Source: Ruminococcus sp. (lineage in GTDB: Bacteria; Bacillota; Clostridia; Oscillospirales; Ruminococcaceae). From it: a DNA stretch of 64,000 nucleotides. This document shows, one piece after another, positions 29,046 to 58,101 of this stretch (position 1 is its first letter; the number at the start of each line of letters is the position of its first letter). The stretch covers positions 9,664 through 73,663 of the forward strand of contig JAJQCE010000029.1 of NCBI GenBank assembly GCA_021202895.1, in the 5' to 3' direction. The position numbers and the translations under genes were made by a program. The notes beneath the pieces were generated by a model that saw nothing but the letters and a program-made list of their open reading frames with translations, was not told the origin of the DNA and made no database searches.

Positions 29046-30305
29046 TTATCGAAATTTAGAAATCACATCACAAGTATAATCAATGTCATCATCGCTGTGA
29101 GCAATTGACACAAACATTGCCTCAAATTGAGAGGGTGCACTGTAAATTCCGTTATCGAGCAAATAGCAGCAGAAGCGAGCAAACTGCGCTGTATTGCAGG
29201 AAGATGCATCATCAAAGTTTTTCACCTTGCGCTCGGTAAAAAAGGGAGTTATAAGCGAGCCAACACGATTGACATTTAAACCGATAAAAGTCATAGCATC
29301 CTCGATTTTCTTAGATTTTTGTTCAAGCTCTAAATAAATGCTTTCATTCTTCTCAAGTGCTTTAATTGTAGCAGATCCAGCCGATACGGCTACGGGATTT
29401 CCAGACAAAGTACCCGCCTGATAGACTGAACCTAGCGGAGCGACTGTATTCATGATATCCTCACGTCCCCCATAAGCGGCAAGCGGCATGCCGCCTCCTA
29501 CAATTTTGCCAAGCGTGGTTAAATCCGCATTGACACCATAAAGCTGCTGAGCTCCGCCAATCGAAAGTCGAAAACCTGTTATAACCTCATCAAAAATAAG
29601 TATACAATTATACTCGTCTGATAACTCTCTTAATTGCTTTAAAAAGCCCTTTTCAGGCGGTACAACACCCATGTTCGCAGCTACGGGTTCGACAATTATA
29701 CAGGCAATCTCGTTGCCGTGACATTCGAGGATTTTTTTTACACTAGAAATGTCGTTGTATCTTGCAAGAAACGTGTTCTCGGCATATCCGTCGGGTACTC
29801 CACTACTGCTTGGCATTGAATTTGTCATCAATCCAGAACCCGCTTTTACAAGCAATCCGTCGGAATGTCCGTGATAGCAACCCTCGAACTTTATAATTTT
29901 ATCACATCCTGTAAATCCTCTTGCAGCACGTATAGCACTCATCACAGCCTCTGTCCCTGAATTGACAAGACGCAATTTTGACATAGACGGAAAGTGCTTC
30001 TTAATAAGTTCGACAAGCTCGATTTCTCCCTCATGACAAGCTCCAAAGGTGAGACCCTTCTGGGCGGAAGAAATGACAGCGTTAATAACCTCACTGTAGG
30101 CGTGACCTAAGATGTTAGGTCCCCATGAGCATACATAATCGATGTACTCGTTACCGTCAACGTCGTAGATTTTTGAGCCGTTTGCACGATCAATGAAAAC
30201 TGGATTTCGCCCTATTGATTTGCATGCTCGTACAGGACTGTTGACACCTGCGGGCATAAATTCACACGCTTTTTGGTAAAGCTCATCTGATTTGCTAGTT
30301 GTCAT
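29046..30305 (-). CDS. hemL: Glutamate-1-semialdehyde 2,1-aminomutase
   Basis: PAGVNSPVRA, NSGTEA, GCYHGH, FDEVITGFR, LGKIVGGG, QAGTLSGNP. Confidence 0.96.
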   Translation of the reverse strand: MTTSKSDELYQKACEFMPAGVNSPVRACKSIGRNPVFIDRANGSKIYDVDGNEYIDYVCSWGPNILGHAYSEVINAVISSAQKGLTFGACHEGEIELVELIKKHFPSMSKLRLVNSGTEAVMSAIRAARGFTGCDKIIKFEGCYHGHSDGLLVKAGSGLMTNSMPSSSGVPDGYAENTFLARYNDISSVKKILECHGNEIACIIVEPVAANMGVVPPEKGFLKQLRELSDEYNCILIFDEVITGFRLSIGGAQQLYGVNADLTTLGKIVGGGMPLAAYGGREDIMNTVAPLGSVYQAGTLSGNPVAVSAGSATIKALEKNESIYLELEQKSKKIEDAMTFIGLNVNRVGSLITPFFTERKVKNFDDASSCNTAQFARFCCYLLDNGIYSAPSQFEAMFVSIAHSDDDIDYTCDVISKFR

Positions 30306-30306
30306 T

Positions 30307-31275
30307 TTAATTCTCCTCATCAATCCATTTTGCGGCATCAAGTGCATGGTACGTTATAATTATATTTGCACCCGCACGTTTTATTGACGTTAAATTCTCC
30401 ATTACAACACGCCTTTCGTCAATCCATCCAAGCTGAGCTGCCGCCTTTACCATTGAGTACTCACCACTGACGTTGTAGGCGGCAAGCGGTAAGTCGAAAC
30501 GCTTAGATGCTTCGTGAACAATATCAAGATAGGGCAACGCAGGCTTTACCATAACCATATCCGCACCTTCGTCAATGTCATCAGAAATTTCTCTTAATGC
30601 TTCCCTTGCGTTAGCGGAATCCATTTGGTAGGTTCTTCTGTCACCAAAAGCGGGAGCGGACTCAGCTGCATCTCTAAAAGGTGTGTAATACACGGATGCA
30701 AATTTTGCACTGTATGCCATGATTGGTGTGTATACAAAGCCATTTTCATCAAGAGATCTGCGAATAGCTGCAACTCGCCCATCCATCATGTCTGACGGGG
30801 CAATAATGTCCGCTCCTGCCTTAGCCATGCTAACTGCCATTTCACAAAGAAGAGGAAGTGTTTGGTCGTTTAGTATTACACCATCCTTTACAACTCCGCA
30901 ATGTCCATGTGAAGTGTACTCGCAAAGACAAATATCAGCAATTACCAAAAGCTTAGGAAATTCAGATTTTATGTATCTTATCGCACGCTGAGTAATTCCG
31001 TTGTCATCATATGCACTTGTTGCCAGCTCATCCTTTTCATTCGGTATTCCAAAAATTAAAACTCCCGAAATCTCACTATCTGATACCTGTTTAATAAGTT
31101 CATATAAATTGTCCAAAGGATATTGAAATATTCCTGGCATAGAGTCAATCGGTTTCTTTTCAATTATGCTATCTGAAACAAACATAGGATAGATAAGTTC
31201 GCTTTTTGAAAGTCTTGTTTCTCTCACCAATTCTCTCATTGCATTACTTGTTCTAAGTCTTCTAAATCTGCGCAT
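30307..31275 (-). CDS. hemB: Porphobilinogen synthase
   Basis: [38 protein letters not shown]. Confidence 0.97.
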
Positions 31276-32749
31276 TATTGTTCTTCCTTTTGATTAGAAA
31301 TATAGTATTTTCTATGCTTTCCACGGATGAACTTTTTGAAATTGATATGTTTTTTACTTTTCTTTTCTCAAGCTCATTTTGAGTAGGCTTCCCAATACAA
31401 ATTGCATATGAATCGTCATTTACTTTACCACCCATTTCAAAGAAAGCTCTAACTCCAGCAGTGCTTGCAAAAATATAATATTTGCAGTTTTGGGGAGGAT
31501 TTAGCTGCAAAGCCTTTGTTTCATATACTTTTATGTCTTCATAGCACATATTACTATTGTCCAAAATTTTGGTCAGATCGTCCGAACCATTTTTGGCTCT
31601 TGCAATTAGTATTTTTTCACTTTTATCAAATCTTTCGCATAACATCTGAGCAAGCTTTTTTGATGTAGCAACGTCAGGTATGAAATCCGTAAATATTCCA
31701 TGCTTCTCAATTGCTCTAGCAGTACTTTTACCAACAGCCGCAAGCTTAATATTGCTAAGTCTGCGCAAATCTATGCACTCTTTTACAAGTGCCTCAAAGA
31801 ATGCTTCGACTCCGCTGGCGCTTGTAAAGGCAGCACATCTAAAGCTCTCTATATTCTGCAAAGCTGCTTTTAAACTGGGATTATCTGCTTTCTTAATAAT
31901 TTCAAGGCACGGCAGAGAAAGAACATTTGCTCCGTCATTTTCAAGTAGCTTTGACATCCTATTTACTATGTTTTGACTTCCCGTAACGCACACGCTTACT
32001 CCGCTTAGTTTCTTATTTAATTTTGTAGTCAGTTCAAGCTCGGCAGTCTTTCCGACAACGAAAACTGCGGGAGGCTCGAGTTCCTCTTCTGAAACCACCC
32101 TTGCAATATCACAAAGAGGTGCCCTAACAACCTTTTGTCTTGATGTCGCACCATTTGAAATTACAGCAGACGGTGTAGCTTTGTCCACTCCATTTAAAAT
32201 AAGATTGTCCGCAATTTGCATTATTTTTTTTAGTCCCATCATAAATACAAGTGTTCCGTCACTGCTTGCAAGCCGTGAAAAATCATCTGGAAAATCATTT
32301 CGCATAGTATTTGCTGTAATGACCTCGAAGGATCTGCTCACATCTCTGTGTGTAACAGGAATTCCCGCAAGCTCAGCAGCGGCAATTGCCGATGAAATTC
32401 CAGGCACTATCTCAAAATCTATGTTAGCTTGCTTTAGCGCAATCGCTTCCTCTCCGCCACGTCCAAAAACAAACGGATCTCCACCCTTAAGACGCACTAC
32501 ATTCTTGCCTTTCATGGCATTTTTTATTATCAAGCTGTTAATCTCTTCCTGAGTAGAACTGTACTTTCCAGCACGTTTGCCTACAGAAAATTTTTCGGCT
32601 TTTTTAGCAAAAGACAAAAGACGAATATCAATTAATGCATCGTAAATTACCACATCACATTCGCCCAAAATCTGCATTCCTCTTACAGTTATAAGGTCAT
32701 AATCACCACAGCCTGCGCCTACAAGTGAAACTCTTCCCATTTGACTCAT
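31262..32749 (-). CDS. cobA: Uroporphyrinogen-III C-methyltransferase / synthase fusion (CobA-HemD)
   Basis: [30 protein letters not shown]; C-terminal FTSASGV and AVGKSTA HemD-like domain. Confidence 0.92.
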
Positions 32750-33609
32750 AGCTGTCTCACCAGCCTTTCAATAAGCTTATATCGATTTTCCAACAAATCC
32801 TCTCCAAAGGCTCTATTAAAGCCGTCAGATGTTATCCTGACAGTTATTTTTTGCTCATCTGCTACAGAGTAAACGCCAATTGGCATAGAACAATCTGCAT
32901 CAAGCAGAGATAAAAGATACCTTTCTGTGTCAAAGCTAATATGAGTTTTGGCATTATCAATTTTCTTTAGCAACTCACAGACTTTGCTGTCTTTTCTAGC
33001 TTGAATCGCAATTATTCCTTGACAGGGTGCAGGTAAAAATTCATCTGGACTAAATCTTTTTATTTTTAATCCATCACGCTTGCTAAAACCTAAACGTTCC
33101 AACCCAGCTGCTGCAAGCATTATCGCATCAAATTCACCTTCACGCAGCTTTTGTATACGTGTGTCAACATTCCCTCTGATATCACCAAAGGATGCGAGCG
33201 GATAAAAGCTTAAAAGCTCTCGTATTCTGCGCAAGGAGCCTGTGCCAACTGAAAATAAATCATCTGCTGCTGGCTCAAACTCCTCAAGCGTCACAAGCGC
33301 ATCCCGACAATCACCTCTAGGAAGAACAGCGCAAATATCTGTTCCATCAGCAAGCTTAAGCGGCAAATCCTTTGCACTGTGAATGGCTATATCAGCATTT
33401 TCGCTAAGAAGTGCTTCTTCCACATTTCTAACAAAGATTCCTTGAGTATTAAAATTTGAAAGAGACGTTTTTTGATCAATATCCCCTGGCGATTTTATAG
33501 TCTTAATCTCAAAGTTCAAGTCCAAAAAAAAGGACTTTAAAGCATCTATAACGATTTCACACTGTTTAAGCGAGAGTTTAGATCCTCTTGCTACAATTGT
33601 TATTTTCAT
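32746..33609 (-). CDS. hemC: Hydroxymethylbilane synthase
   Basis: RGSKLS, GD, HSAKDLP, GTGSLRR, RGNVDTR, LAAAGLERLG, PAPCQG. Confidence 0.95.
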   Translation of the reverse strand: MKITIVARGSKLSLKQCEIVIDALKSFFLDLNFEIKTIKSPGDIDQKTSLSNFNTQGIFVRNVEEALLSENADIAIHSAKDLPLKLADGTDICAVLPRGDCRDALVTLEEFEPAADDLFSVGTGSLRRIRELLSFYPLASFGDIRGNVDTRIQKLREGEFDAIMLAAAGLERLGFSKRDGLKIKRFSPDEFLPAPCQGIIAIQARKDSKVCELLKKIDNAKTHISFDTERYLLSLLDADCSMPIGVYSVADEQKITVRITSDGFNRAFGEDLLENRYKLIERLVRQL

Positions 33610-34216
33610 TTTTTCCTTCCTCAAGCAGCTTTAAAACTTTTTCTTTCGCTTTTGATTTTTTCTCATTCATACATATCTCAAAAATAAGCGATATAATGTG
33701 ATTTTTTGTTTTTGTATCTGAATATATTTCTTGTAAGTCTTTGCGATACTCTCCCAAAATTTCTACAGCGAAAGACAAATTATCGGTCAAAACATCATCA
33801 ATTTTTTCTCTTACAAATGATGAAACAAATGGACTTTTCCCATTTGTAGTTACCGCTGCAGTTATATCTCCGTTTTTTGATATAGCGGGAAAAATAAAGC
33901 TGCATTTTTCTTTATCGTCAACGGTATTTATAAGAATATTTTCGTCCTGACAAAGTCTGAAAATATACTCATTTAATTGCTCATCATCGGTTGCAGCAAT
34001 AACGCAAAAAGCATTTTTAATATCCTTGTCAGAAAACTCTCGTTTATGAACAGTAACGTCTAGTTTTCCAAATTCTTCACATACATCCTTAGCGACAATT
34101 TTAATTTTTGCACCAAATTCCATAAGCTTTTGAGCCTTTCTGTAGGCCACCTTTCCGCCGCCTACAACTAAAATCTCTTTGTCACATACATCTATAAAAA
34201 ACGGAAAATAGCTCAT
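33578..34216 (-). CDS. Precorrin-2 dehydrogenase / sirohydrochlorin ferrochelatase (SirC/Met8/CysG N-terminal type)
   Basis: YFPFFID, LVVGGGKVAYRK, IAATDD, NTVD...FIFP. Confidence 0.9.
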   Translation of the reverse strand: MSYFPFFIDVCDKEILVVGGGKVAYRKAQKLMEFGAKIKIVAKDVCEEFGKLDVTVHKREFSDKDIKNAFCVIAATDDEQLNEYIFRLCQDENILINTVDDKEKCSFIFPAISKNGDITAAVTTNGKSPFVSSFVREKIDDVLTDNLSFAVEILGEYRKDLQEIYSDTKTKNHIISLIFEICMNEKKSKAKEKVLKLLEEGKNENNNCSKRI

Positions 34217-35346
34217 TTGTTTTGCTCCTCTAAAAGTTTTGATAAGGCTGTCAGAACTGCGTCAAACTGCGAGAATTCAAGACTTGACTTTAACGTGATA
34301 ATTAGTTTCCTTGCATCTATCTGCCTCTCACAAATTTGATTTAAAGTCGGCTGAAAACTATGATAAGCAAGTTCCTTTTCCAATTCATTAGTCTTAAGAT
34401 GAATTATTTCCTTTGCGGACAAAGCGATTTTTTCTTTTCGTTTGTTGTTTTGCTCCGCCATATTTTTAAAGTCATCAATGGTAAGAAGCTTCACTCCTTC
34501 GATTGTTTTTACATGCGAATCGATGTCGGGCGGCACGGCTAAATCTATAAAAAGCCTTGACTTTTCCTCTTTAATTGCATTATCTATCTCATTGTAATTT
34601 AGCGTGTAATGTGGTGCGTTAGTTGCACTTATAACGCAATCCATTTTGTCAATCAGCTTGTATCTGTCCGAAAAATCGTACAGCTTTACTCCCAGCTCTT
34701 TTGCAAGCTCTATATCCCTATTTCTGCTTCTCGTAGTAGCATAAGCTGTTACATTTTTATGTGCAATTAGATTTTTTAGAGTAGAAAGTCCAATCTTTCC
34801 GGTTGCACCGATCACAAGCGCATTAACAGCTGTATTTGTGAATTTTGCAGCAGCATTTGCCGCAAGTGTTGCTATAGAAACTGGGATAGTCGAAAGAGAA
34901 GTGCTTGTCTTTATTTTCTTGGCACAGGCAAATGCCGTTTGAAAAATCATGTTAAACTGTGAGGATACACAGCCACATTCGTTTGCGTTTTCGTAAGCCT
35001 CTTTAAGCTGCCGCAATATTTCATCCTCGCCTATCACCATCGAATCAAGACCAGCTGCAAGAGAAAATAAATGCTCTATCGCCTGGTGTCCACAAAATCG
35101 CATTACATACGGCCCAAGCTCATTTTCTTCAAAGTTCCCTATCTTAGAAAGAACGTGCGATATTTCTTCCCAATATTCTCCTTCAAAATAAATCTCAGTG
35201 CGATTGCAGGTACAAAGCATTACACATTCATTAGTGAAACTTGATTTTATTTTTTCGATAAGTTTGACTTGCTCACTCTTGCTCAACGCAAGCTGACTTC
35301 TAATTTTCTGTGGAGCAAGCTTATAGTTTATACTAGTGCAGTTCAT
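34213..35346 (-). CDS. hemA: Glutamyl-tRNA reductase
   Basis: LCTCNRTEIY, GLDSMVIGEDEILRQLK, IGATGKIG, DLAVPPDI. Confidence 0.93.
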   Translation of the reverse strand: MNCTSINYKLAPQKIRSQLALSKSEQVKLIEKIKSSFTNECVMLCTCNRTEIYFEGEYWEEISHVLSKIGNFEENELGPYVMRFCGHQAIEHLFSLAAGLDSMVIGEDEILRQLKEAYENANECGCVSSQFNMIFQTAFACAKKIKTSTSLSTIPVSIATLAANAAAKFTNTAVNALVIGATGKIGLSTLKNLIAHKNVTAYATTRSRNRDIELAKELGVKLYDFSDRYKLIDKMDCVISATNAPHYTLNYNEIDNAIKEEKSRLFIDLAVPPDIDSHVKTIEGVKLLTIDDFKNMAEQNNKRKEKIALSAKEIIHLKTNELEKELAYHSFQPTLNQICERQIDARKLIITLKSSLEFSQFDAVLTALSKLLEEQNK

Positions 35347-35379: not shown

Positions 35380-35417
35380 CCTACTAAAATTATAGCACTT
35401 TATTTTTCGTTTGTCAA
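35380..35417 (-). promoter_or_regulatory. sigmaA promoter of the hem/siroheme operon with Rrf2-type box
   Basis: TTGACA (35412-35417)-17-TATAAT (35389-35394); CCTAC-TAAAATT-ATAGC at 35380-35396. Confidence 0.75.
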
Positions 35418-36049: not shown

Positions 36050-37549
36050 TTAGTTATCCTCAAGATCACTCTTGTTTACGCTTGCAACGCAAAAATCAAT
36101 TCTTTCGTCCTTATCCTTGCTTGAATTGCCGCCGCCTGTCATACCAACATTCTTGTTGGGATCTATTCCATCGACTGCGGTAACCTCGCCAGTTCCCTCG
36201 CCCTTTGATGCTCCAGGAACTCTAAACGTCGAAACGTCTATAGGCTCAATCGATGTTTCAACAGGCTTTTCAAGCTGAGGAATCCACTCGTATGGAACAC
36301 GGTATGCACGATAAACCATGTTGTTTCTAACCTTGCCGCCTATTTTGTTGAAATAAGGATTGATATACTCCCACACAATTTCATGCTCAGGTGTGACCTC
36401 AATAAGACGACCGTCCGACCCTTCGGTGATTAGCGTGTTGCCGTTAGGAAGACGCTGCGCTGCACTTATGTACGAGCTGTAGAACTTTGAAGCGTCACTA
36501 AACAAGAAATGTCCAGCCTCTAAGGGAGTGTACTGCCATGTGATTTCAAGCGTCACAGGATTAAACTGCAGCACTCTCGAGTAGTCACGGTGAGCGTTGT
36601 TTACGCCCGTTGCAGATGCAGGATTAGGAACGCCGTAGCCTCCCTCTCCGCCGTTGTCGAATACTAACAGGTCGCCTTCCCCGGGTAAGCCCTTAGGTAT
36701 CATGTGAAGGTGATGCTGACCAATTATCCATCCAAGCTTTCTTGTAGCCTCGTTTTCGTTAAAATCAGGACCTAAACGCCATACTATCTTACCTGTTTCA
36801 CGGTCAATAATTGCTAAGATATTTGAATTTCTAGCATCAAAGATGATATTATTAGGATTAAATCTCTCGTCACCCGCATCATACCACTTGTTTTCACCAA
36901 GTGTAGCAAAATTGTTTATGTGCATCCAATCTCCGCCCGCATCACCGTGAACTCCTGGATTGCGGTAGAGTGTGTTCTTTGCAGCTTCGTCAAAGCCAAG
37001 CTCGTCAAAGTGATCGCTTGCTTTCCAACTCCAAAGGATGTTGCCCTCCCAGTCAACCTCAATAATCTTGTCGTCAATAAGACGCTTATCTGAGATGTTG
37101 TGGTTGTAGACATTTTCATGAGTTAGAATCAACGTCTTTCCGCTGTCTATTTTAGGCTCGCCGCCTGGATAATAGTATCCTACGGTATTACCCTCACGCT
37201 GAAAATCGTGATGCTGTCTTGCCATATACTGTGGCTCTTCACCAGGATCCGCTACAAGCTCGGTTTTATCAAACTTCCAGACGATGTGTCCATCCCAGTC
37301 AACCTGAACTAAGTCAAGCTGGTCTTGATAGCCTGCCTTTGCAGTACGTCTGCCAGTAGAGCCAAAAACGTATCCGCCAGGGAGAATCTTGTTCGGAAAA
37401 CCTCCCAAGCCTGCCCAAAGCTTAACCTCGTTGCCATTCATGTCTACAAGCAGTGCACCCTTTGTAGATGGAAAAATCGTGTAACCACTGTATGTTTTGT
37501 CTTTGTTAAAAATTGTTGTCCCCGTAGGGAATACGCTAGGATAGCCCAT
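36050..37549 (-). CDS. Aryl-sulfate sulfotransferase family protein (ASST-1), cytoplasmic, with C-terminal Cys tail
   Basis: Beta-propeller-type repeats (EVDWEGNILWSW, TGKIVWRLG), QHHD, DWMHIN, DARN, GQHH, VFDNG, SSAQRLPNGNTLITEG-type motif; no signal peptide. Confidence 0.85.
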   Translation of the reverse strand: MGYPSVFPTGTTIFNKDKTYSGYTIFPSTKGALLVDMNGNEVKLWAGLGGFPNKILPGGYVFGSTGRRTAKAGYQDQLDLVQVDWDGHIVWKFDKTELVADPGEEPQYMARQHHDFQREGNTVGYYYPGGEPKIDSGKTLILTHENVYNHNISDKRLIDDKIIEVDWEGNILWSWKASDHFDELGFDEAAKNTLYRNPGVHGDAGGDWMHINNFATLGENKWYDAGDERFNPNNIIFDARNSNILAIIDRETGKIVWRLGPDFNENEATRKLGWIIGQHHLHMIPKGLPGEGDLLVFDNGGEGGYGVPNPASATGVNNAHRDYSRVLQFNPVTLEITWQYTPLEAGHFLFSDASKFYSSYISAAQRLPNGNTLITEGSDGRLIEVTPEHEIVWEYINPYFNKIGGKVRNNMVYRAYRVPYEWIPQLEKPVETSIEPIDVSTFRVPGASKGEGTGEVTAVDGIDPNKNVGMTGGGNSSKDKDERIDFCVASVNKSDLEDN

Positions 37550-37550
37550 G

Positions 37551-38933
37551 TTACTTTACCTCCGTTACTTCGCCCTCACCAATGACACTCACTGTGCCGG
37601 GCACTCTAAATGTTTCAATATCGACTGGTTTAATGTCAACCTCTTCAGGTCTTGAAAGCTGCGGAACCCACTCATAAGGAACTCTGTAAGCTCTGAAGAG
37701 AAAGTTGGTCTTTTTTGTTTTATCTGAAAAATGCGTTTCAAAATAGGGATTTATGTATTCCCATACTATTTCATGCTCTGCTGTAACCTCTAACACTCTT
37801 CCATCTGAACCCTCAGTAATAAGAGTGTTGCCGTTTGGAAGCCGCTGTGCTGAGCTTACGTACGAGCTGAAAAATTTCGTTGGGTCTGTGAATGTGTTGA
37901 ATCCAGCCTCTTCAGGTGTATACTGCCAAGTTATATCAAGAGTTACGGGGTTAAACTGCAAAACCCTTGAATAGTTTCTCTGATAATGATTAATTCCCGT
38001 TTCAGAGTTTACCGTCGGCACACCATAGCCAGATGCTCCTCCATTATCGAAAACGAGAATGTCACCTTCGCCAGGCAGACCTTTTTGAATAAGGTGCAGA
38101 TGATGCTGTCCCATTATCTGTCCTAACTTCTTTAAAGCTTCGTTTTCGCTGAATTCAGGTCCCAATCTCCATACAACTTTACCTGTTTTCTTCTCAATAA
38201 TACCAAGTATATTTGCCTGTCTTGCATCAAAAAGAATATTCTCAGGATTAAAGCGTTCATCGCCGTTATCATACCACTTGTTCTCACCAAGAATTGAAAT
38301 GTTATTAAACGTAAGCCAGTCGTGCCTTCCGCTTCCTCTTCCAGGCGTACGATAAATAGTATTCTTTGCTGCCTCATCAAAGCCAAGCTCGTCAAAGTGT
38401 TCCGACGCTTTCCAGCTCCATACAATATTACCCTGCCAATCAACTTCAATTATCTTTTCGTCATTGATTGTGTGTGGTGAAATTTTAGGATCATTTGTGC
38501 GTTCGTGGGTAATAATGATTGTGTTCTCGCCCTCCGTTTTAGGAAGACTGTTCGGTGAAAAATACCCTAACGGTAAGCTTTCTCTCTGCCAATCATGCGA
38601 TTGCTTTGCAACATAAACCTCACCATCATCCGTTTGGATTTTTGTGTTTTTGTCAAACCTCCAAACTACATTTCCGTTCCAATCCACCTGCAAAAGGTCG
38701 GCACGCTCAAGAAATTCAAGCTTATCTCTGTACTTATTTGATGATGTCACAAGATAACCGCCAGGAAGAATTCTGTCAGGAAAGCCAAGTGTTCCTGTCC
38801 ATGTTTTAACTTCTCTTCCATTCATATCGATAAGCTGTGCGCCTTTTGCACTGTGAAAAATTGTATAACCGCTGTATGCCTTACTTTTATTATAAAGCGT
38901 CACACCAGTCGGGTAAACTGTTGGATAGCCCAT
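37551..38933 (-). CDS. Aryl-sulfate sulfotransferase family protein (ASST-2), cytoplasmic paralogue
   Basis: Colinear with ASST-1 (e.g. SEHFDELGFDEAAKN, RVLQFNPVTL, QRLPNGNTLITEGSDGR); DWLTFN in place of DWMHIN; no Cys. Confidence 0.83.
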   Translation of the reverse strand: MGYPTVYPTGVTLYNKSKAYSGYTIFHSAKGAQLIDMNGREVKTWTGTLGFPDRILPGGYLVTSSNKYRDKLEFLERADLLQVDWNGNVVWRFDKNTKIQTDDGEVYVAKQSHDWQRESLPLGYFSPNSLPKTEGENTIIITHERTNDPKISPHTINDEKIIEVDWQGNIVWSWKASEHFDELGFDEAAKNTIYRTPGRGSGRHDWLTFNNISILGENKWYDNGDERFNPENILFDARQANILGIIEKKTGKVVWRLGPEFSENEALKKLGQIMGQHHLHLIQKGLPGEGDILVFDNGGASGYGVPTVNSETGINHYQRNYSRVLQFNPVTLDITWQYTPEEAGFNTFTDPTKFFSSYVSSAQRLPNGNTLITEGSDGRVLEVTAEHEIVWEYINPYFETHFSDKTKKTNFLFRAYRVPYEWVPQLSRPEEVDIKPVDIETFRVPGTVSVIGEGEVTEVK

Positions 38934-38951: not shown

Positions 38952-39482
38952 TTAAAATGTTATTTTAATATCTTCGACTCTGTCTGAAAATACCTTTTGT
39001 GCCGACACAATGCCGTTATTGCCTAGATTTCTAACAAGTATAAGGCTGCCAATTTCGATAGCTTCATACGACACAAGCGGAAGTATTCCATTGTCAAGTA
39101 ATATCTCCTTTGTAGCACTGTCATAACCCTTTGCCAATATAGCTGCACTTCCTGAAGCTATAAGAAAAGACGCTGTATCATGGGTTAAGTCTGTAATTTT
39201 GTGATCTACGCTTATAATTCCCGAAAGTACTGTGTTTCTAATTCTAAACCCGTCAATGGTTCTTTTAAGAAAATCAATCCTTTCTCTAAGGAAAGATAGA
39301 TTTACAATCGGGCAGCTGTCGGTTTGTGCCGCAAGCTCACCAAGCTTGTAAGGCTTTGCCTTTTGCTCGAACTCTTCTCTCTCCTCAGCCGTTTTAGGCA
39401 GCTTGTCAGATATGACATAAAGCGATGCATCTGTAGAAATATCACGTCTGTTATAGGAGAGCTCTGCATATTTGTATTCCAA
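38952..39482 (-). CDS. Hypothetical protein; C-terminal half resembles an aconitase/LeuD swivel domain
   Basis: TTG start after GGAGG; GSAAILAKGY...LLDNGILPL resembles G..AVIA.SF.RI...N..N.G.LPL. Confidence 0.55.
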   Translation of the reverse strand: MEYKYAELSYNRRDISTDASLYVISDKLPKTAEEREEFEQKAKPYKLGELAAQTDSCPIVNLSFLRERIDFLKRTIDGFRIRNTVLSGIISVDHKITDLTHDTASFLIASGSAAILAKGYDSATKEILLDNGILPLVSYEAIEIGSLILVRNLGNNGIVSAQKVFSDRVEDIKITF

Positions 39483-39502: not shown

Positions 39503-40549
39503 TTATGATAGCTCTACCATAATCTTGTCGCTGTCCTCACCAAATGCTAGTACAGCTGCCGAGGTGTCTATGAATTGACGTACATCATACTCAGTATCAT
39601 ATTTGCCGTTTTCATATGCCCATGCGGCAACATCCTCAAGCTTTTGCGCACCCTCTTCAGTGAAGCCTAGGTTGAATTGCAGATTATTCCAGTTGGACTG
39701 GAAATCATCCTCTTCTATACCAAATTTGCTTGCAATATCAGGCGTCACCTCATCAAGATGCTCGGTTATGTACTCAACACTCTCTTCAAGCGCAACAAGG
39801 TAATCGCCGAGAAGCTCGGTATTATCATCAAGAAAATCTGTTGTGGTCATAAGATAGCTTCTTGTTGCTATGCCAATTTCATCGGATGTCGCTACAAGAA
39901 CCATTCCGTACTCCTCATAGCGTTCAGCTGTTGCTCCGCTTGCTATAACTGCTCCAACCTCTCCTTTACTAACAAGCGAAAGGGATGACGACACGTCTGT
40001 TGAGTTTATATTTTCAACCTTATCCGGATCTAAGCCAACATAAGTTAGCGCCAGCCAGTTTTGATATTCTGAAACTGTACCTATATTCGTAATTATTCCG
40101 GGGCTGTCATAGAGTCCCTCAAGATTATCTGCATATTCCTCGGCTACGTAAAGTCCTCCAGTGGTATCTCTGCCAGTGCGGCCGCCTGTAAGCTCTGAGA
40201 AAGTAACCAGGTTTGTGTCATCCAGTGTATTTCCTATGCGGTTTACAAGTGCAAAATCAGCTAAAAGACCTGTATCTGCCGTGCCGTTTTGAACAGCATC
40301 CATTGTGTTTATACTGGCAGCGTACTCCGCAGTAGTAAGCTCTATTCCATACTTTTCAAAGATACCCTGCTCACTGCCTATGTATGTGGCATACTGATCC
40401 GCCTGACCTGTCATGATAGCTACGCGAAGCGTTGTAAGCTCGGTTCCATCCTCTGCTGTTGAAGTGTCGTCAGAATCACCGCATCCGACAAATGCCGTAA
40501 CTGAAAGTGACGATGCTACTAAAAACGCTAATATTTTCTTTATTTTCAT
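39503..40549 (-). CDS. ABC transporter substrate-binding lipoprotein, SsuA/TauA-like
   Basis: Lipobox FVGC, LRVAIM, IGSEQGIFEKYGIELT, family-typical size and position next to an SsuC-type permease. Confidence 0.8.
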   Translation of the reverse strand: MKIKKILAFLVASSLSVTAFVGCGDSDDTSTAEDGTELTTLRVAIMTGQADQYATYIGSEQGIFEKYGIELTTAEYAASINTMDAVQNGTADTGLLADFALVNRIGNTLDDTNLVTFSELTGGRTGRDTTGGLYVAEEYADNLEGLYDSPGIITNIGTVSEYQNWLALTYVGLDPDKVENINSTDVSSSLSLVSKGEVGAVIASGATAERYEEYGMVLVATSDEIGIATRSYLMTTTDFLDDNTELLGDYLVALEESVEYITEHLDEVTPDIASKFGIEEDDFQSNWNNLQFNLGFTEEGAQKLEDVAAWAYENGKYDTEYDVRQFIDTSAAVLAFGEDSDKIMVELS

Positions 40550-40565
40550 TGTAATCAACTCCTAA

Positions 40566-41360
40566 TTATTTAAGTCCGTAATGACCAAGTTTCTTTCTTC
40601 CTATAAACTGTAAAAGTCTGTCTGCTATAAATCCCAGTAGTGCAAGCGTTACTATTCCTGCAAATGCCCAGCTTGTTCTGTAGTAAAGCTTCGAGCTTTG
40701 GATTAGATAGCCAAGTCCATCGCTTCCGACAAGCATTTCTGCCGCTATAACGGTAAGTATTGATGAACTAAGTCCTAAGCGTATTCCTGTGAATATATTT
40801 GCCACCGCTGAGGGAAGAATTACCGTGAAGAAGACTCTTGCCTTCTTAGCTCCCATACAAGAAGCTGCCTCAACAAGCGACTGATCTGTAGATACAACAC
40901 CAGCTATAGTGTTTACAAAAATTGCAAAGAACGACGCATAGAATATAAGTGCAACTTTAGACTCTTCTCCTACGCCAAACCACATCAGAAAAAGTGTGGT
41001 AAGTGCGATTGCAGGAACGAATCTAAAAAAGCTTAAAATCGGCTCTACCAGGTATCTCACAGGCTTGAAGCTTCCGACTAAAAGTCCAAGCGGTACGCCA
41101 AAAACTACTGCTAGTGCCCAGCCCTTTGCAACTCTCGAGATACTTGCTACAAAATCTGCCCAGAGAGTGCCATCCTGAACTAGAATTATAAGACTGTCGA
41201 TGGTTTCCTTAGGCGAAGGCAGGAAATAGTCGTCATACGCAAGCGAGCCTAACCCCCAAACGACCAGAATTATCGCCCATGAAATTACTCCGCATTTAAA
41301 AATTCTCTGTCCTATATTTTCTGAGGATCTGCTCTTCTGTTTTTTTTCTTCTTTTGCCAT
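40566..41360 (-). CDS. ABC transporter permease, SsuC/TauC-like
   Basis: LPSP, SISRV..GW, FRFVPAIAL, GVGEESK, EAASCMGA, IAAEMLVGSDGLG. Confidence 0.9.
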   Translation of the reverse strand: MAKEEKKQKSRSSENIGQRIFKCGVISWAIILVVWGLGSLAYDDYFLPSPKETIDSLIILVQDGTLWADFVASISRVAKGWALAVVFGVPLGLLVGSFKPVRYLVEPILSFFRFVPAIALTTLFLMWFGVGEESKVALIFYASFFAIFVNTIAGVVSTDQSLVEAASCMGAKKARVFFTVILPSAVANIFTGIRLGLSSSILTVIAAEMLVGSDGLGYLIQSSKLYYRTSWAFAGIVTLALLGFIADRLLQFIGRKKLGHYGLK

Positions 41361-41373
41361 AACGCATTCCTCC

Positions 41374-42441
41374 TTAAATGTAGTAAATTGTGCTGTCATC
41401 GATAAAGCTGTTTGATACAACCTCGGTTTTGTCACCATCTATCGTGTACAGCTTTTTGATAAGCACCTTGACTTCGTCGCCCTTCTTAAGCCTTGTGGCG
41501 TTAAGGTCGTATCTTCCCGTGACAGACATGCTGTCTATGTTTACTTTGACCTCAAATGCGTTCCCTCTAAAGAACACATCCTCTACTATGCCATTCTCCA
41601 TAGAGCTTTCGTATTGATGATGCCCATTGTCCGTAAACTTGTTTATCTCAATAAACTCAGGACGAATTACCGCCGAAGCTTTGCTGTCCGAACCAGAAAA
41701 GCCCTTTAATCTGCCATAATCGGTGATTATCGCCGATTGTCCGATAAACTGAGCGACAAATGGTGTTTTCGGGTTAAGATAAATCTCAGCGGGATTTCCA
41801 ACCTGTTCGACCTTACCAAGGTTTGTTATGACAATTTCATCCGCCACCTCGATAGCCTCATCTTGATCGTGGGTTACAAAGATGCTTGTAATTCCGATTT
41901 TATCAATCGTCTCTCTAAGCCATGTTCTTAGCTCTTTTCTTACCTTTGCATCAATCGCCGCAAACGGTTCGTCCAAAAGAAGAAGCTCAGGCTCGGGAGC
42001 TAAGGCTCTTGCTAGTGCAATTCTCTGACGCTGACCGCCGCTAAGCTGCTCGGGATAACGTTTTTCAAGTCCCGGAAGACCAACAAGATCGAGCAACTCG
42101 GCAACACGATTTCTAATTGTTTCTTTATCCTTTTTTTGAACCTTTAGACCGTAAGCTATGTTATTGTACACATTCATATAAGGAAACAGCGCATAGTTTT
42201 GAAATACAAAGCCTATTCCTCTCTCGCTTGAAGGAAGATCGTTGACGACCTTGCCGCCGATTGAAATATCTCCGCTGTCCTGATGTTCAAGTCCCGCTAT
42301 CATTCTAAGGATAGTTGTTTTGCCGCTTCCTGATGGTCCCAGCAAGCCGATTAATTTTCCCTTCTCGATGCCAAAGGTAACGTCACTTGATGCCTTGCAA
42401 TCGCCAAATGTCTTGTTTACATTGTTTAACTCAATATACAT
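41374..42441 (-). CDS. cysA: ABC ATPase of the CysA (sulfate/thiosulfate) type
   Basis: GPSGSGKT, ERGIGFVFQNYALF, LSGGQRQR, LLLDEPFAAIDAKVRKELRTWLR, C-terminal TOBE-like region. Confidence 0.85.
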   Translation of the reverse strand: MYIELNNVNKTFGDCKASSDVTFGIEKGKLIGLLGPSGSGKTTILRMIAGLEHQDSGDISIGGKVVNDLPSSERGIGFVFQNYALFPYMNVYNNIAYGLKVQKKDKETIRNRVAELLDLVGLPGLEKRYPEQLSGGQRQRIALARALAPEPELLLLDEPFAAIDAKVRKELRTWLRETIDKIGITSIFVTHDQDEAIEVADEIVITNLGKVEQVGNPAEIYLNPKTPFVAQFIGQSAIITDYGRLKGFSGSDSKASAVIRPEFIEINKFTDNGHHQYESSMENGIVEDVFFRGNAFEVKVNIDSMSVTGRYDLNATRLKKGDEVKVLIKKLYTIDGDKTEVVSNSFIDDSTIYYI

Positions 42442-42564
42442 AATAACCAACTCCGAATTATTTTACTGTTGTTAGTTGTTTCAAATCTGATCTTAAGTCA
42501 ACATCGCTTGCTTTTAATAAAGATCTGTACCATAAAGTTTGACCCCCTTTTAATTCATACCTTT

Positions 42565-42621
42565 TCGATATGATTAGTATGTTTATAATTATAAACCCAT
42601 TTTTCCGATATGTCAATAGGG
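42565..42621 (-). promoter_or_regulatory. sigmaA consensus promoter of the cysA-ssuCA-ASST operon with two Rrf2-type boxes
   Basis: TTGACA (42611-42616)-17-TATAAT (42588-42593); boxes at 42605-42621 and 42565-42581. Confidence 0.8.
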
Positions 42622-42707: not shown

Positions 42708-42763
42708 TTGACAAATCAACTGAAATAATATATAATAAGTATAAATCATATTAATCGAATATG
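42708..42763 (+). promoter_or_regulatory. sigmaA consensus promoter of the thioredoxin gene with palindromic box
   Basis: TTGACA (42708-42713)-17-TATAAT (42731-42736); CATAT-TAATCGA-ATATG at 42747-42763. Confidence 0.78.
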
Positions 42764-42789
42764 AAAAGTATAGTTAGGAGATGAAAAGC

Positions 42790-43104
42790 ATGATTACTGA
42801 GCTTACAACCAGCACATTTGACGAAATAACCTCAACCGACAAACCTGTGGTGATAGAATTTTACTCGCCGACCTGTGTTCACTGCAAGAGAATGGAGCCA
42901 GGACTTAACGAGGTTGCCGACGAGCAAGAAAACGACGCAGTTATTACCAGATGTGACATCACAACCTCGCCTGAGCTTGCGCAGCGCTATGACATCACTG
43001 CCGTTCCGACAACGCTCTTTATAAAAAACGGTGAAATTAAGGACAAGCTTGTGGGATTTACACATAAGCTGATAATTTCCCAGGGTATTGAAAAGCTAAA
43101 GTGA
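42790..43104 (+). CDS. Thioredoxin family protein (CVHC)
   Basis: EFYSPTCVHCKRM, cis-Pro VPT, GEIKDKLVG; start 42790 or 42781. Confidence 0.9.
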   Translation: MITELTTSTFDEITSTDKPVVIEFYSPTCVHCKRMEPGLNEVADEQENDAVITRCDITTSPELAQRYDITAVPTTLFIKNGEIKDKLVGFTHKLIISQGIEKLK

Positions 43105-43158: not shown

Positions 43159-44058
43159 TTAAAGACTTCTAAGATAATTCTCAGCGCTTGTTACGGCATT
43201 TGCTCCGTCAGCGGCTGCGGTTATCACCTGTCTAAGGGGTGTGGTTCTCACATCTCCCGCAGCAAACAAGCCCTTGGCATCGGTAGCTCCGTCCTCACCT
43301 GCAATGATATATCCGAAGCTGTCAAGTGAACAAACTCCTTTTAAAAGCTCGGTGTTCGGCAGACTTCCAAGTGCGCAGAAAACACCGTCTATCTTTAGCG
43401 TGTCAATAGAGCCGTTTCGGTTTAACACGAGCTCTTCAGCTTTGTCGCCTCCGTTTACCTTAGTCACAGTAGTGTTTAGTATAAACTCAATGTTTTCAAC
43501 AGCATTCACCTGTGCTTGTAAGCTTTTGTTTGCCCTAAATTCATCTCTTCTGTGGATTAGATAGACCTTCTTAGCAATCTTTGATAGGTAAGCTGCATCT
43601 CCAAGCGCAGTATCTCCGCCACCTATGACGGCTACAATCTTGTTTTGATAGAAAGCTCCGTCACATACCGCACAGTAGGATACACACTGTTTTTCACTCC
43701 CCTCAACGCCAAGTCTGCGGTAGGATGTTCCCGCAGCGTAGATAATAGCCTTAGCTTCAAGTACCCTTCCGTCTGAAAAGGTTACCGCCCAATAGTCACT
43801 TTCCTTTGCTATTGCTTTAGCCTCGCCGTCATAGAACTCAGTTCCCAAAGCTAAAGCATGCTCACGAAAACCCTCGCCTAAATCATATCCTGATACTCCG
43901 TAAAGCCCAGGATAGTTTTCTACACGCTCACTTACCGAAATCTGTCCCGTACCCATATAGTCTTTTTCGACCACCACGGCGTTTAGCATAGCGCGCTTAG
44001 CGTAAATTGCAGCCGTAAGTCCAGCAGGTCCGCTGCCTATTATAATTATGTCATACAT
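43159..44058 (-). CDS. trxB: Thioredoxin-disulfide reductase
   Basis: GSGPAGLTAA, VSYCAVCDG, GGGDTA, HRRDEFRA, FAAGDV. Confidence 0.93.
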   Translation of the reverse strand: MYDIIIIGSGPAGLTAAIYAKRAMLNAVVVEKDYMGTGQISVSERVENYPGLYGVSGYDLGEGFREHALALGTEFYDGEAKAIAKESDYWAVTFSDGRVLEAKAIIYAAGTSYRRLGVEGSEKQCVSYCAVCDGAFYQNKIVAVIGGGDTALGDAAYLSKIAKKVYLIHRRDEFRANKSLQAQVNAVENIEFILNTTVTKVNGGDKAEELVLNRNGSIDTLKIDGVFCALGSLPNTELLKGVCSLDSFGYIIAGEDGATDAKGLFAAGDVRTTPLRQVITAAADGANAVTSAENYLRSL

Positions 44059-44070
44059 AACAATTCCTCC

Positions 44071-44523
44071 TCAAATATAGTACATAGGTTCGCTTGCATT
44101 ATTTTCAAGCTCCTTCTCATAACGCTCGGCAAGATCTGCCACCGTAACCGACATAGCGCAGTCCGACATATACCTTTCTATTTTGTTCCACAAAAGCTCA
44201 TTTATCACGTCAGAGAAACCATTGTTTTCGTTTCCGATCTCGGGAACATCGTTGTTTAAAAGCGACGATTCAAGAGCGTTTATCACTTCATTAAGCGTAA
44301 TATCCTCTGCCCTTTTAGAGAGAATATACCCGCCTCCTGAGCCTTTTTGTCCCTTAATTAGATGTGAATGGCGAAGTGACGAGAGTATCTGCTCGAGGTA
44401 CTTTTCAGAAATACCCTGCCTTCCTGAAATGCTGATAACAGTGACCGTTTTTCCATTCCGTGCATTGATTGCAATGTCAGTAATTGCCAAAATTCCACAC
44501 TCAACCTTTGTTGAAATTTTCAT
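44071..44523 (-). CDS. Rrf2 family transcriptional regulator (CymR-like, no IscR Cys triad)
   Basis: MKISTK, ISEKYLEQIL..L, KGSGGGYIL, ITLNEVINALE, LW. Confidence 0.92.
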   Translation of the reverse strand: MKISTKVECGILAITDIAINARNGKTVTVISISGRQGISEKYLEQILSSLRHSHLIKGQKGSGGGYILSKRAEDITLNEVINALESSLLNNDVPEIGNENNGFSDVINELLWNKIERYMSDCAMSVTVADLAERYEKELENNASEPMYYI

Positions 44524-44545: not shown

Positions 44546-44590
44546 CCTATCTGCTTAATATAGTATAACTGATTTTTTTGAGATTGTCAA
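44546..44590 (-). promoter_or_regulatory. sigmaA promoter of rrf2-trxB with autoregulatory box
   Basis: TTGACA (44585-44590)-17-TATACT (44562-44567); box CCTAT-CTGCTTA-ATATA at 44546-44562 flanked by AATT. Confidence 0.72.
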
Positions 44591-44683: not shown

Positions 44684-44716
44684 CCTATTGACTTTGTAGG
44701 AAATTCAGTGTATAAT
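44684..44716 (+). promoter_or_regulatory. sigmaA promoter of the metY(pseudo)-sulfite reductase-sulfur carrier operon with box over -35
   Basis: TTGACT (44688-44693)-17-TATAAT (44711-44716); TTTCCTAT-TGACTTT-GTAGGAAA. Confidence 0.78.
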
Positions 44717-45910: not shown

Positions 45911-46774
45911 ATGGCAGTAGATTATGCAACGCTCAAAAAGGGCGGATTTATGAGACAAAAGCAGAAGAACAACTTTTCACTAAGACTAAGAGTTGTAGGA
46001 GGAAACCTTACAGCTAAGCAGCTTGCAAAGATTGCCCAGGTTTCTGAAAAGTACGGTGACGGTCATGTACATCTCACCTCACGTCAGAGTGTAGAGATAC
46101 CGTTTATCAAGCTTGACGACATAGATGAGGTAAAAGCTGCTCTTGCCGAGGGAGATGTTTCACCTGGAGTCTGCGGACCTAGGGTGCGTACCATTACCGC
46201 CTGTCAGGGAGAGGCAATTTGCCCGAGCGGATGTATCGACACCTATAAGCTTGCTAAAGAGCTTGACGAACGCTACTTTGCAAGAGAGCTTCCGCACAAG
46301 TTTAAGTTTGGCATTACGGGATGTCAGAACAACTGCCTAAAGGCTGAGGAAAACGATCTCGGCATAAAAGGAGCGCTCAAGGTAAAGTGGAAGAAGGACA
46401 GCTGTATTCAATGCGGAGTCTGTCTTAAGGCTTGCCGCACGCAGGCTCTAAGCCTTGAGGATGGCAGGATAGATCTCGAGGAGGGCAAGTGCAATTTCTG
46501 TGGAAGATGCGTAAAGGCTTGTCCTGCGGATGCGTGGGATGTTACAAGCGGCTACATAGTTTCATTCGGAGGAATTTTTGGCAACAATATAAGCAAGGGC
46601 GAGGCTATCATTCCGTTTATAGACGACCACGACAAGCTCATGAGCGTTTGCGATGCGGCGATTAGCTTCTTTAATGAGAACGCACTTGCAGGCGAGAGAT
46701 TTAAGTTTACCATAGACAGGGTAGGCAAGGACAAATTTGAGCAAAGGATTTTGGAGGCGTATAACAATGGCTGA
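45911..46774 (+). CDS. Siroheme/[4Fe-4S] sulfite reductase-like protein (AsrC/Dsr fold, with 2x[4Fe-4S] ferredoxin insert)
   Basis: LRLRVVGG, HLTSRQSVEI, TACQGEAIC and GCQNNC siroheme-cluster Cys, CIQCGVC/CNFCGRC ferredoxin motifs, GERF. Confidence 0.88.
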   Translation: MAVDYATLKKGGFMRQKQKNNFSLRLRVVGGNLTAKQLAKIAQVSEKYGDGHVHLTSRQSVEIPFIKLDDIDEVKAALAEGDVSPGVCGPRVRTITACQGEAICPSGCIDTYKLAKELDERYFARELPHKFKFGITGCQNNCLKAEENDLGIKGALKVKWKKDSCIQCGVCLKACRTQALSLEDGRIDLEEGKCNFCGRCVKACPADAWDVTSGYIVSFGGIFGNNISKGEAIIPFIDDHDKLMSVCDAAISFFNENALAGERFKFTIDRVGKDKFEQRILEAYNNG

Positions 46775-57147: not shown

Positions 57148-57400
57148 ACAAAAAGCCCTCTGAAAAGCCAAAGCTTACCAGAGGGCGAAAAACGCTGTAC
57201 CACCTCAATTTATCGAACTAAAAGTCCGATCTCATTGTCCTTTAACGCAGGAAACGTCCTTTCCTAATCACGCACAATGGCGTCTTTCTCAGAAAGAAAG
57301 CTGATAGAATGTAATTGACAAACGCACGCTGTCTGCTCACACCAACCGCAGACTCTCTGAAAGTCACAAACCGCTTGCTTAAATTCCCGTCATAGCCTTT
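57148..57400 (-). ncRNA. T-box riboswitch (Tyr)
   Basis: Stem I GACGGG..AGAGAG..GGTTGGTGTGAG, specifier TAC (plus-strand GTA 57311-57313), T-box AAATTGAGGTGGTACAGCG, terminator GCCCTCTG...CAGAGGGCTTTTTG. Confidence 0.9.
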
Positions 57401-57439
57401 ATATATCAATCATTTAATAAATGCCTATACAAAAATAAA

Positions 57440-57512
57440 AGCGGATTACGAGGCTCGAACTCGCTACCTCCACCTTGGCAAGGTGGCGCTCTACCGGATG
57501 AGCTAAATCCGC
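57440..57512 (-). tRNA. tRNA-Gly(GCC), CCA not encoded
   Basis: GCGGATT acceptor stem, CCACC-TTGCCAA-GGTGG anticodon arm, TTCGAGC T-loop. Confidence 0.95.
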
Positions 57513-57634
57513 AAAATTCAAAATCAAATCAAAGTACGTAAACCAACATTGAACAAACTCTTAGGGCGGACGGTTTTTGCGTCAGCAAAAACATAAATGA
57601 AAAGCCCGAACATAGACTTGTGTCCGTCCCGAAG

Positions 57635-57707
57635 TGCCTCCGGACGGAATCGAACCATCGACACGGGGATTTTCAGTCCCCTGCTCTACCTACTGAGCTA
57701 CAGAGGC
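57635..57707 (-). tRNA. tRNA-Phe(GAA), CCA not encoded
   Basis: GCCTCTG stem, GGGGA-CTGAAAA-TCCCC anticodon arm, TTCGATT T-loop. Confidence 0.95.
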
Positions 57708-57920
57708 AAGAAAATATTCAAAATATAATCTTGACAAATATCCCCATCGAGGATAACATCAGGTTTATTTTTTTACAAATGAAATTCACAGCAAATTCCA
57801 CACCAAACTTCTCCCAGCGAAAATTCGGAAACAATCCCCGAAATTTCACGCAGTGAAATTTATAGCATATGCACACCAAAAATAAAAGCGACTAACAAAG
57901 TAAACGCATATGCGTGCGAG

Positions 57921-57994
57921 CGACCGGAATGGGGCTCGAACCCACGACCTCCAGCGTGACAGGCTGGCGTTCTAACCAACTGAACTACCCGGCC
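57921..57994 (-). tRNA. tRNA-Asp(GTC), CCA not encoded
   Basis: GGCCGGG stem, CCAGC-CTGTCAC-GCTGG anticodon arm, TTCGAGC T-loop. Confidence 0.95.
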
Positions 57995-58025
57995 GAATAA
58001 ACGGAGCAGATGCCTGCTCCGCAAA

Positions 58026-58101
58026 TGGTGGAAACTATAGGACTCGAACCTATGACCCTCTGCTTGTAAGGCAGATGCTCTCCCAGCTGAGCTAAGCTTC
58101 C
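58026..58101 (-). tRNA. tRNA-Val(TAC) with encoded CCA
   Basis: GGAAGCT stem, TCTGC-CTTACAA-GCAGA anticodon arm, ends ACCA. Confidence 0.96.

Follow-up and report, generated by a model that had tools for sequence, protein, structure and literature searches.

A 64,000-nucleotide stretch of contig JAJQCE010000029.1 from Ruminococcus sp. (assembly GCA_021202895.1, positions 9,664 to 73,663 of the forward strand; hereafter the window, to which all coordinates without a locus number refer) encodes ASST-1, a cytoplasmic beta-propeller protein of the arylsulfate sulfotransferase (ASST) family that combines an intact active site with a cysteine-bearing C-terminal tail (36050..37549, minus strand; 499 residues; assigned by Pfam, an AlphaFold2 (AF2) model and a fold match in the PDB). 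We consider it probable, although well short of certain, that ASST-1 forms the catalytic subunit of an enzyme that reduces sulfate esters with the help of thioredoxin, and that it represents a convergent analogue of the reductase CysH built on the ASST beta-propeller. This reading is based on the anatomy of the protein, the conservation of its tail cysteine, the retained active-site residues, the linkage and fusion to thioredoxin, and the lack of sulfate-activation genes in the host; the substrate and each chemical step of the proposed cycle are what we infer from them.

A single cysteine on the C-terminal tail of ASST-1

Translation of ASST-1 gives one cysteine in 499 residues, Cys487, which is encoded by the TGC codon at 36089..36091 (minus strand) and is set in the context RIDFCVAS behind a linker rich in Gly, Ser, Asp and Lys, as an earlier note on this DNA had claimed. 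The C-terminal end that carries it reads ...VDGIDPNKNVGMTGGGNSSKDKDERIDFCVASVNKSDLEDN up to the stop codon, the sequence around Cys487 is also given as ...GMTGGGNSSKDKDERIDFCVASVNKSDLEDN, and the final 40 residues include 7 Asp, 5 Gly, 5 Asn, 4 Lys and 4 Ser. The earlier claim that the neighboring paralogue ASST-2 lacks this C-terminal extension, then put at about 35 residues, is likewise borne out: the pairwise alignment of the two proteins stops at residue 459 of ASST-1, leaving about 40 extra residues (460-499; 36053..36172, minus strand). Within them lies the conserved motif I484-D-F-C-V-A-S490 (36080..36100, minus strand).

Both proteins match the ASST families PF05935 and PF14269 well above the curated cut-offs; for ASST-1, the values are E = 2.6e-24 and 86.4 bits (cut-off 24.2) and E = 1e-17 and 65 bits (cut-off 27), respectively. 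The first propeller strand begins at residue 1 of ASST-1 (MGYPSVFPTG) and directly at the start of ASST-2, and inspection of the two N-termini revealed no signal peptide in either. In the AF2 model of ASST-1, the propeller is all-beta with a predicted local distance difference test score (pLDDT) of 91 and a predicted template modeling score of 0.90, and the C-terminal extension scores pLDDT 76/61/75/72. Modeling the protein with its tail had been suggested as a check in the earlier note, and the lowest pLDDT of ASST-1 indeed falls on the linker at residues 471-480 (61); FCVA is modeled with a short predicted strand on either side. A Paenibacillus member with a short tail has pLDDT 57/44/41 over its 24 C-terminal residues (461-484), which contain the cysteine. 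As modeled, the conserved cysteine of ASST-1 is carried on a flexible C-terminal tail.

The tail cysteine is conserved across the family

Conservation was assessed in two sets, the best 120 homologues of ASST-1 (63-84% identity, of which 111 are full length) and a broad set of 89 family members from 84 loci in GTDB genomes and assemblies. The motif [DN]-F-C-[VMT]-[AV] stands at the same place in 109 of the 111 full-length close homologues; of the two exceptions, one protein ends two residues before the motif and the other has Asn for Cys. Ahead of the constant motif, the linker differs between homologues in both its length and its sequence, and in 55 close homologues the motif cysteine is the sole cysteine of the protein, as in ASST-1. 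More distant representatives, at 42-50% identity, retain xFC[VI], and across phyla the motif generalizes to x[FLA]C[VIL]. The cysteine column is occupied in 82 of the 89 members of the broad set, which spans Bacillota, Actinomycetota, Spirochaetota, Synergistota, Chlorobiota, Myxococcota, Planctomycetota, Chloroflexota, Fusobacteriota, Thermodesulfobacteriota and SAR324, and it is invariant in an alignment of 49 sequences. The earlier note had staked its proposal on this residue being conserved, and the proposal survives in both sets. Judged from the alignments, conservation of the tail cysteine, the proposed sulfuryl acceptor, is far beyond chance and a hallmark of the family.

The spacing of the cysteine from the upstream YRAYRxP anchor is similarly constrained, with the cysteine at a fixed 50-53 residues after the anchor in most of the family. 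The subfamily to which the window belongs has a longer acidic linker, with a 10-15-residue acidic insertion that places the cysteine 61-68 residues after YRAYRxP, and Bifidobacterium members carry about 50 extra residues. Among distant representatives whose sequences were read by eye, the cysteine motif was not seen in relatives with signal-peptide-like N-termini, which have 20-30 extra N-terminal residues; a regular-expression count of N-terminus type against tail cysteine over 150 representatives was too strict for use. Replacement of the cysteine by selenocysteine was considered and rejected, as no TGA occupied the motif position when six cysteine-less members were translated past their stop codons.

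NCBI names the family proteins either 'aryl-sulfate sulfotransferase' or, oddly, 'thioredoxin', and no NCBIfam model covers them. Within the order of the host, the ASST-1 family is present in 3 of 301 genomes, so the island of genes around ASST-1 is patchily distributed and probably mobile.

Active-site residues of classical arylsulfate sulfotransferases are retained

The catalytic sulfo-histidine and the sulfuryl-coordinating set of the Escherichia coli enzyme are His436, His356, Asn358 and Arg374 (PMC13426309). To locate their counterparts, the gene for E. coli CFT073 ASST was aligned to the family profile with hhalign (probability 88%; residues in mature E. coli numbering). His279 of ASST-1 (36713..36715, minus strand) corresponds to the sulfo-histidine His436 (precursor His463) and is found in all 89 family members; Arg240 (36830..36832, minus strand) corresponds to Arg374 and Asn212 to Asn358, each also conserved in 89/89; and His210 (36920..36922, minus strand) corresponds to the sulfuryl-binding His356 and is conserved in 85/89, with Thr in its place in ASST-2. 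The E. coli residues His252 and Thr501 have no reliable position in the ASST-1 alignment. With His279, His210, Asn212 and Arg240 all kept, ASST-1 has what the first ASST half-reaction needs.

By sequence and by fold, the closest PDB match of ASST-1 is Cpz4 (9KF4/9KF6), with a Foldseek E value of 5e-17, a template modeling score of about 0.5, a phmmer E value of 2e-5 and 18-20% identity. Single-sequence and profile searches of the PDB recovered Cpz4 and did not recover E. coli ASST.

Genomic linkage and repeated fusion to thioredoxin

Divergent from the operon that ends in ASST-1 is trxA1 (42781..43104, plus strand; PF00085), which encodes a thioredoxin with the atypical active site C32-V-H-C35 (42874-42885) and is the proposed resolving partner; a thioredoxin reductase gene, trxB, follows (43159..44058, minus strand; TIGR01292, E = 1e-96). 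Neighborhoods were counted over 80 loci, many of them on short contigs, with the proteins of the window as the only seeds. A thioredoxin gene adjoins the tailed ASST (within 1.5 kb) in 17/80 loci, and in 23/80 the gene for TrxB is no more than 10 kb from it. The CxHC active site is common to the ASST-adjacent thioredoxins, the fused thioredoxin domains found elsewhere and TrxA1 (CVHC); the second thioredoxin of the island, beside the sulfite reductase, has C-[IV]-[PA]-C.

In six loci (L044, L050, L053, L064, L065 and L070), ASST and thioredoxin are fused in a single protein of about 600 residues, with the thioredoxin domain directly behind the cysteine motif, here ALCVATDEEE. The active site of the fused domain is RC[VT]HCK in four of the six and a CxNC variant in the other two, and TrxB is encoded directly upstream in five, with none in the segment of L044 that was searched. 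Two more fusions, P0124 and P0125, occur among the distant representatives. In BLAST comparisons, the fused domains share 25-34% identity with the two island thioredoxins, and the CxHC fusions lean toward TrxA1, although not decisively. On a maximum-likelihood tree, the fusions fall at three well-separated places, and thus ASST-thioredoxin fusion arose at least three times independently. Such repeated fusion provides strong comparative evidence that the tail cysteine acts as a thioredoxin substrate.

ASST-2 and the split tandem pairs

The gene for ASST-2 (37551..38933, minus strand; 460 residues) lies immediately upstream of that for ASST-1, with one base between the stop codon of the former and the start of the latter, and its product is 63% identical to ASST-1. 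By alignment and tree, it is a tail-less paralogue that has lost every cysteine as well as His113 and His210 (H113S and H210T). Its branch length is 0.87, against 0.11 for ASST-1, and the duplicate arises inside the window's own clade. The tree thus points to a recent duplication followed by fast evolution, and the degenerate ASST-2 is either a copy in decay or, more probably, a non-catalytic partner.

Tandem paralogue pairs occur in four systems, those of the window, Treponema primitia, a Spirochaetaceae metagenome-assembled genome (MAG) and a Synergistaceae MAG. In the three spirochaete and Synergistes pairs (L030 8510-11293, L040 728-3571 and L081 3459-6437), it is the tailed copy that is degenerate (H113N, H144N/C, D207F/Y and H210A), and the tail-less, cysteine-free copy has every catalytic residue present; on the tree, the tailed and tail-less copies form separate, well-supported orthologous groups. 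The window pair is the opposite, with tail and intact site combined in ASST-1. Provided that the cysteine and the active site are both important, a degenerate tailed copy and an intact tail-less copy must cooperate in trans. The paired systems therefore suggest a division into carrier and catalyst, and, structures aside, they are the best available evidence that the tail would enter the propeller site.

Sulfite reductase and the sulfur metabolism of the host

The island also encodes a small sirohaem/Fe-S sulfite reductase of the AsrC-like type (45911..46774, plus strand; PF01077, PF03460 and TIGR02912), which is the proposed consumer of sulfite, together with the second thioredoxin, ThiF and JAB. 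On the opposite flank, translated open reading frames (ORFs) from hemA to hemL, with cobA/hemD and sirC (29046..35346, minus strand), make up a whole sirohaem pathway, which would supply the reductase. Full islands were found in L007, L018-L020, L022 and L025, with sirohaem genes flanking the island likewise in L007, L018-L020 and L022; L018 is labeled Parabacteroides distasonis, and its island is nearest on the tree to the Lachnospiraceae islands of L022 and L025, probably owing to contamination of the bin or to a recent transfer.

In 14/80 loci, a sulfite reductase is encoded no more than 10 kb from ASST, and the combination of genes recurs in unrelated organisms. One NCBI genome has the order thioredoxin, ASST, ATPase, permease, binding protein and sulfite reductase; in Pseudolactococcus, ASST is followed by the ATP-binding cassette (ABC) transporter, a CysI-like sulfite reductase and sirohaem genes; and in Bifidobacterium callitrichos, sulfite reductase, flavodoxin and CbiX are divergent from TrxB, the ABC transporter and ASST. 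On an Oscillospiraceae contig, a gene of the TauE/SafE family (sulfite exporter; L004 12363-13130, minus strand) adjoins a thioredoxin-ASST-ABC operon.

The host genome (99.5% complete) gave no match to PF01507 (CysH/CysD) or to PF01747 (Sat), while the controls were detected. There is thus no detectable route from sulfate to sulfite in the host, yet sulfite reductase is kept. Together with the linkage described above, these gene contents make sulfite a plausible product of ASST-1.

Organization of the island

The operon is ordered ABC-orf176-ASST-2-ASST-1 and runs divergently from trxA1, with trxB and a gene for an Rrf2-family (CymR/IscR-like) regulator (44071..44523, minus strand) beyond. 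The ABC genes (39503..42450, minus strand) specify an importer of the sulfonate/taurine/nitrate type, made up of an NMT1/SsuA-like binding protein, a TauC/SsuC-like permease and an ATPase, and a homologous transporter stands beside ASST in 43/80 loci. In a Desulfovibrio MAG (L042 4145-5548, plus strand), a gene of the Na+/sulfate symporter family (DASS) lies directly upstream of the tailed ASST and replaces the ABC importer; a lipoamide-dehydrogenase-like flavoprotein is encoded 1 kb downstream. The 176-residue orphan ORF of the operon (38952..39482, minus strand) matches no Pfam or NCBIfam model, lacks a counterpart in every one of the 84 related loci and, judged by this distribution, is outside the conserved module.

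Five perfect or near-perfect sigma-70 consensus promoters stand at the heads of the island's transcription units. That of the ABC-ASST operon is perfect (42588..42616, minus strand; 12/12 match), as is the divergent promoter of trxA1 (42708..42736, plus strand), and the others are at 35389-35417 (minus strand), 44562-44590 (minus strand) and 44688-44716 (plus strand). Scanning with Rfam gave no riboswitch for the island. Elsewhere in the window, a T-box leader (57178-57402, minus strand) and four tRNA genes (57440-58101, minus strand) are unrelated to ASST-1.

Proposed mechanism

In the cycle that we propose, the sulfonate-type ABC importer would take up an anionic sulfate ester, with an aryl sulfate the likeliest substrate. 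His279 would then attack the ester sulfur to form N-sulfo-histidine, as in classical ASSTs, with His210, Asn212 and Arg240 holding the sulfuryl group. No phenol acceptor would be used; instead, the thiolate of Cys487 would enter the active site of its own or a partner subunit on the flexible tail and either take the sulfuryl group from the sulfo-histidine or attack the bound ester directly, in both cases yielding S-sulfocysteine (a thiosulfonate). The CxHC thioredoxin TrxA1 would attack the cysteine sulfur so that sulfite leaves, NADPH and TrxB would regenerate TrxA1, and the sulfite reductase of the island would convert sulfite to sulfide for a ThiS/ThiF/JAB thiocarboxylate route. By rough estimate, the group-transfer potential of an aryl sulfate lies between those of free sulfate and adenosine 5'-phosphosulfate (APS), which would put its reduction within the reach of thioredoxin. 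The most economical reading of the data is a sequence of sulfo-histidine, then S-sulfocysteine, then thioredoxin-dependent release of sulfite.

Several observations weigh against this proposal. The similarity to classical ASSTs is remote (hhalign 88%), and E. coli ASST is missing from the Foldseek top 50 for ASST-1. Three members (L071, L078 and L079) have no cysteine and no tailed partner nearby, and the distant fusion P0125 has the thioredoxin domain without a tail cysteine. The binding protein of the importer has no PDB relative, and its match to the SsuA family is weak and below the cut-off. Finally, about half of the 80 loci have no thioredoxin, TrxB or sulfite reductase within 10 kb; a housekeeping thioredoxin may serve those that lack redox or sulfite genes, or their contigs may be too short.

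Alternative explanations

An unlikely, although serious, alternative is that the redox cycle of cysteine and thioredoxin is real and the substrate is another one, such as thiosulfate, an S-sulfo compound, an activated sulfonate or a sulfoxide, again feeding the sulfite reductase. The importer belongs to a family for sulfonate, taurine and nitrate in which the ligand is not readable from sequence, Desulfovibrio has the DASS-type anion symporter instead of the ABC system, and the single-cysteine, thioredoxin-recycled methionine sulfoxide reductases and 1-Cys peroxiredoxins are established examples that use other substrates. However, ASST-1 retains all four residues with which classical ASSTs bind or carry the sulfuryl group, attack by histidine on a C-SO3 sulfonate would have no good leaving group, and thiosulfate is usually taken up through binding proteins of the CysP/Sbp type. 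We regard as distinctly improbable the possibility that ASST-1 is an ordinary cytoplasmic aryl-sulfate:phenol sulfotransferase whose tail cysteine does no more than act as a redox switch, by plugging the active site or by forming a disulfide between subunits, which thioredoxin would release. In favor of it, ASST-1 has the complete catalytic set of an ASST, and an inter-subunit disulfide was once proposed for the oxidized dimer of E. coli 3'-phosphoadenosine 5'-phosphosulfate (PAPS) reductase (PMC1175818). A sulfotransferase gives no assimilable sulfur, however, and it leaves the linkage to sulfite reductase, sirohaem and importer genes unexplained in a host in which no sulfate-activation genes were detected; nor would a mere regulator be expected to fuse to thioredoxin three times or to be split from the active site in the tandem pairs.

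Very improbable, in our assessment, is a role of the tail cysteine as a persulfide or sulfur-relay arm, like that of DsrC or TusE, that passes sulfur to the sulfite reductase or to a ThiS/ThiF module. DsrC and TusE have a flexible C-terminal arm with a conserved Cys followed by Val, which enters the sulfur-handling site of a partner, and the Cys-Val motif on the flexible C-terminal arm of ASST-1 resembles it; moreover, ThiF/JAB genes lie within 10 kb in 10/80 loci. Most of the 80 loci nevertheless have no ThiF/JAB within that distance, no rhodanese or cysteine desulfurase partner is present, and a relay would leave both the thioredoxin fusions and the ASST active site without a role. DsrC, for which no homology with ASST-1 is claimed, also uses two cysteines and forms a trisulfide with DsrAB, whereas ASST-1 has one.

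Comparison with known systems

In CysH, the APS/PAPS reductase of E. coli, Mycobacterium tuberculosis and plants, a single essential cysteine on a flexible C-terminal tail forms an E-Cys-S-SO3- intermediate from which thioredoxin frees sulfite (PMC1175818; bioRxiv 10.64898/2026.09.04.749436); the PAPS reductase of E. coli has one C-terminal cysteine, and the plant APS reductases carry a C-terminal thioredoxin domain behind the catalytic cysteine (PMC1175818). The conserved cysteine of ASST-1 lies on a C-terminal tail predicted with low confidence, in the motif [DN]FC[VM] in place of the ECGLH of CysH. The thioredoxin domain of the plant enzymes is mirrored by the ASST-thioredoxin fusions, and the product feeds a sulfite reductase in both systems, as proposed for ASST. 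The two proteins are unrelated in sequence and in fold: unlike CysH, which has an ATP-PPase-like fold, ASST-1 is a beta-propeller, and neither ASST-1 nor its genome has a PF01507 match; the proposed donor is a sulfate ester rather than APS or PAPS, no ATP would be spent, and a sulfo-histidine step would probably come first. ASST-1 is thus not a member of the CysH family but appears to be its functional analogue.

The periplasmic ASST/AstA of E. coli CFT073 (PDB 3ELQ, PF05935) is homologous to ASST-1 by Pfam, and the equivalents of its His436 and of His356/Asn358/Arg374 are kept, although phmmer finds no match between the two. ASST-1 differs from the periplasmic enzyme in being cytoplasmic, with no signal peptide, no Dsb-made disulfide (it has one cysteine) and no N-terminal beta-sandwich domain, in having the cysteine tail and a thioredoxin partner, and in being linked to sulfur assimilation genes rather than to dsbL/dsbI. 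These sequence comparisons place ASST-1 in the ASST superfamily as a divergent member located in the cytoplasm. Cpz4 of caprazamycin biosynthesis (PF14269), its best PDB match, is also cytoplasmic and independent of PAPS; it transfers sulfate onto a natural product, and the match does not bear on the cysteine tail or the thioredoxin link.

Implications

Sulfate esters make up a major pool of sulfur in soil and also in the gut; those of the gut include phenyl, p-cresyl, indoxyl, steroid and drug sulfates. The known routes for using sulfate esters proceed by sulfatase hydrolysis followed by ATP-costly activation of sulfate. Full-text searches of the literature turned up no ASST described as thioredoxin-linked, sulfite-forming or cytoplasmic. 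In our judgment, the chances are about even that the cytoplasmic cysteine-tailed ASST clade represents an unrecognized class of enzyme, an ATP-independent and thioredoxin-dependent sulfate-ester reductase that converts aryl sulfates to sulfite, and there is a real chance, which we put at one in two, that the ASST-1 finding defines a new enzyme activity.

If the proposal is correct, the direct conversion of an ester to sulfite by thioredoxin would add both a new reaction and a new point of entry into sulfur assimilation, and it would explain why sulfite reductase and sirohaem synthesis are kept without a detectable CysH/CysD-family or Sat-type gene. It would also be a case of convergent evolution, in which the CysH solution of a tail cysteine, a thiosulfonate, thioredoxin and thioredoxin fusion was reinvented on an unrelated propeller. 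The clade comprises thousands of sequences, from gut Clostridia, Bifidobacterium, lactobacilli, Paenibacillus, Spirochaetes, Chlorobi, Dehalococcoidia and Desulfovibrionaceae, through which host, dietary and soil aryl sulfates would be converted to sulfite; in assimilating organisms, this sulfite would replace the Sat/CysC/CysH route. The same activity would give microbes a further means of removing uraemic toxins and drug conjugates, and sulfite-respiring Desulfovibrionaceae and Peptococcaceae could produce H2S from aryl sulfates, for instance p-cresyl or indoxyl sulfate.

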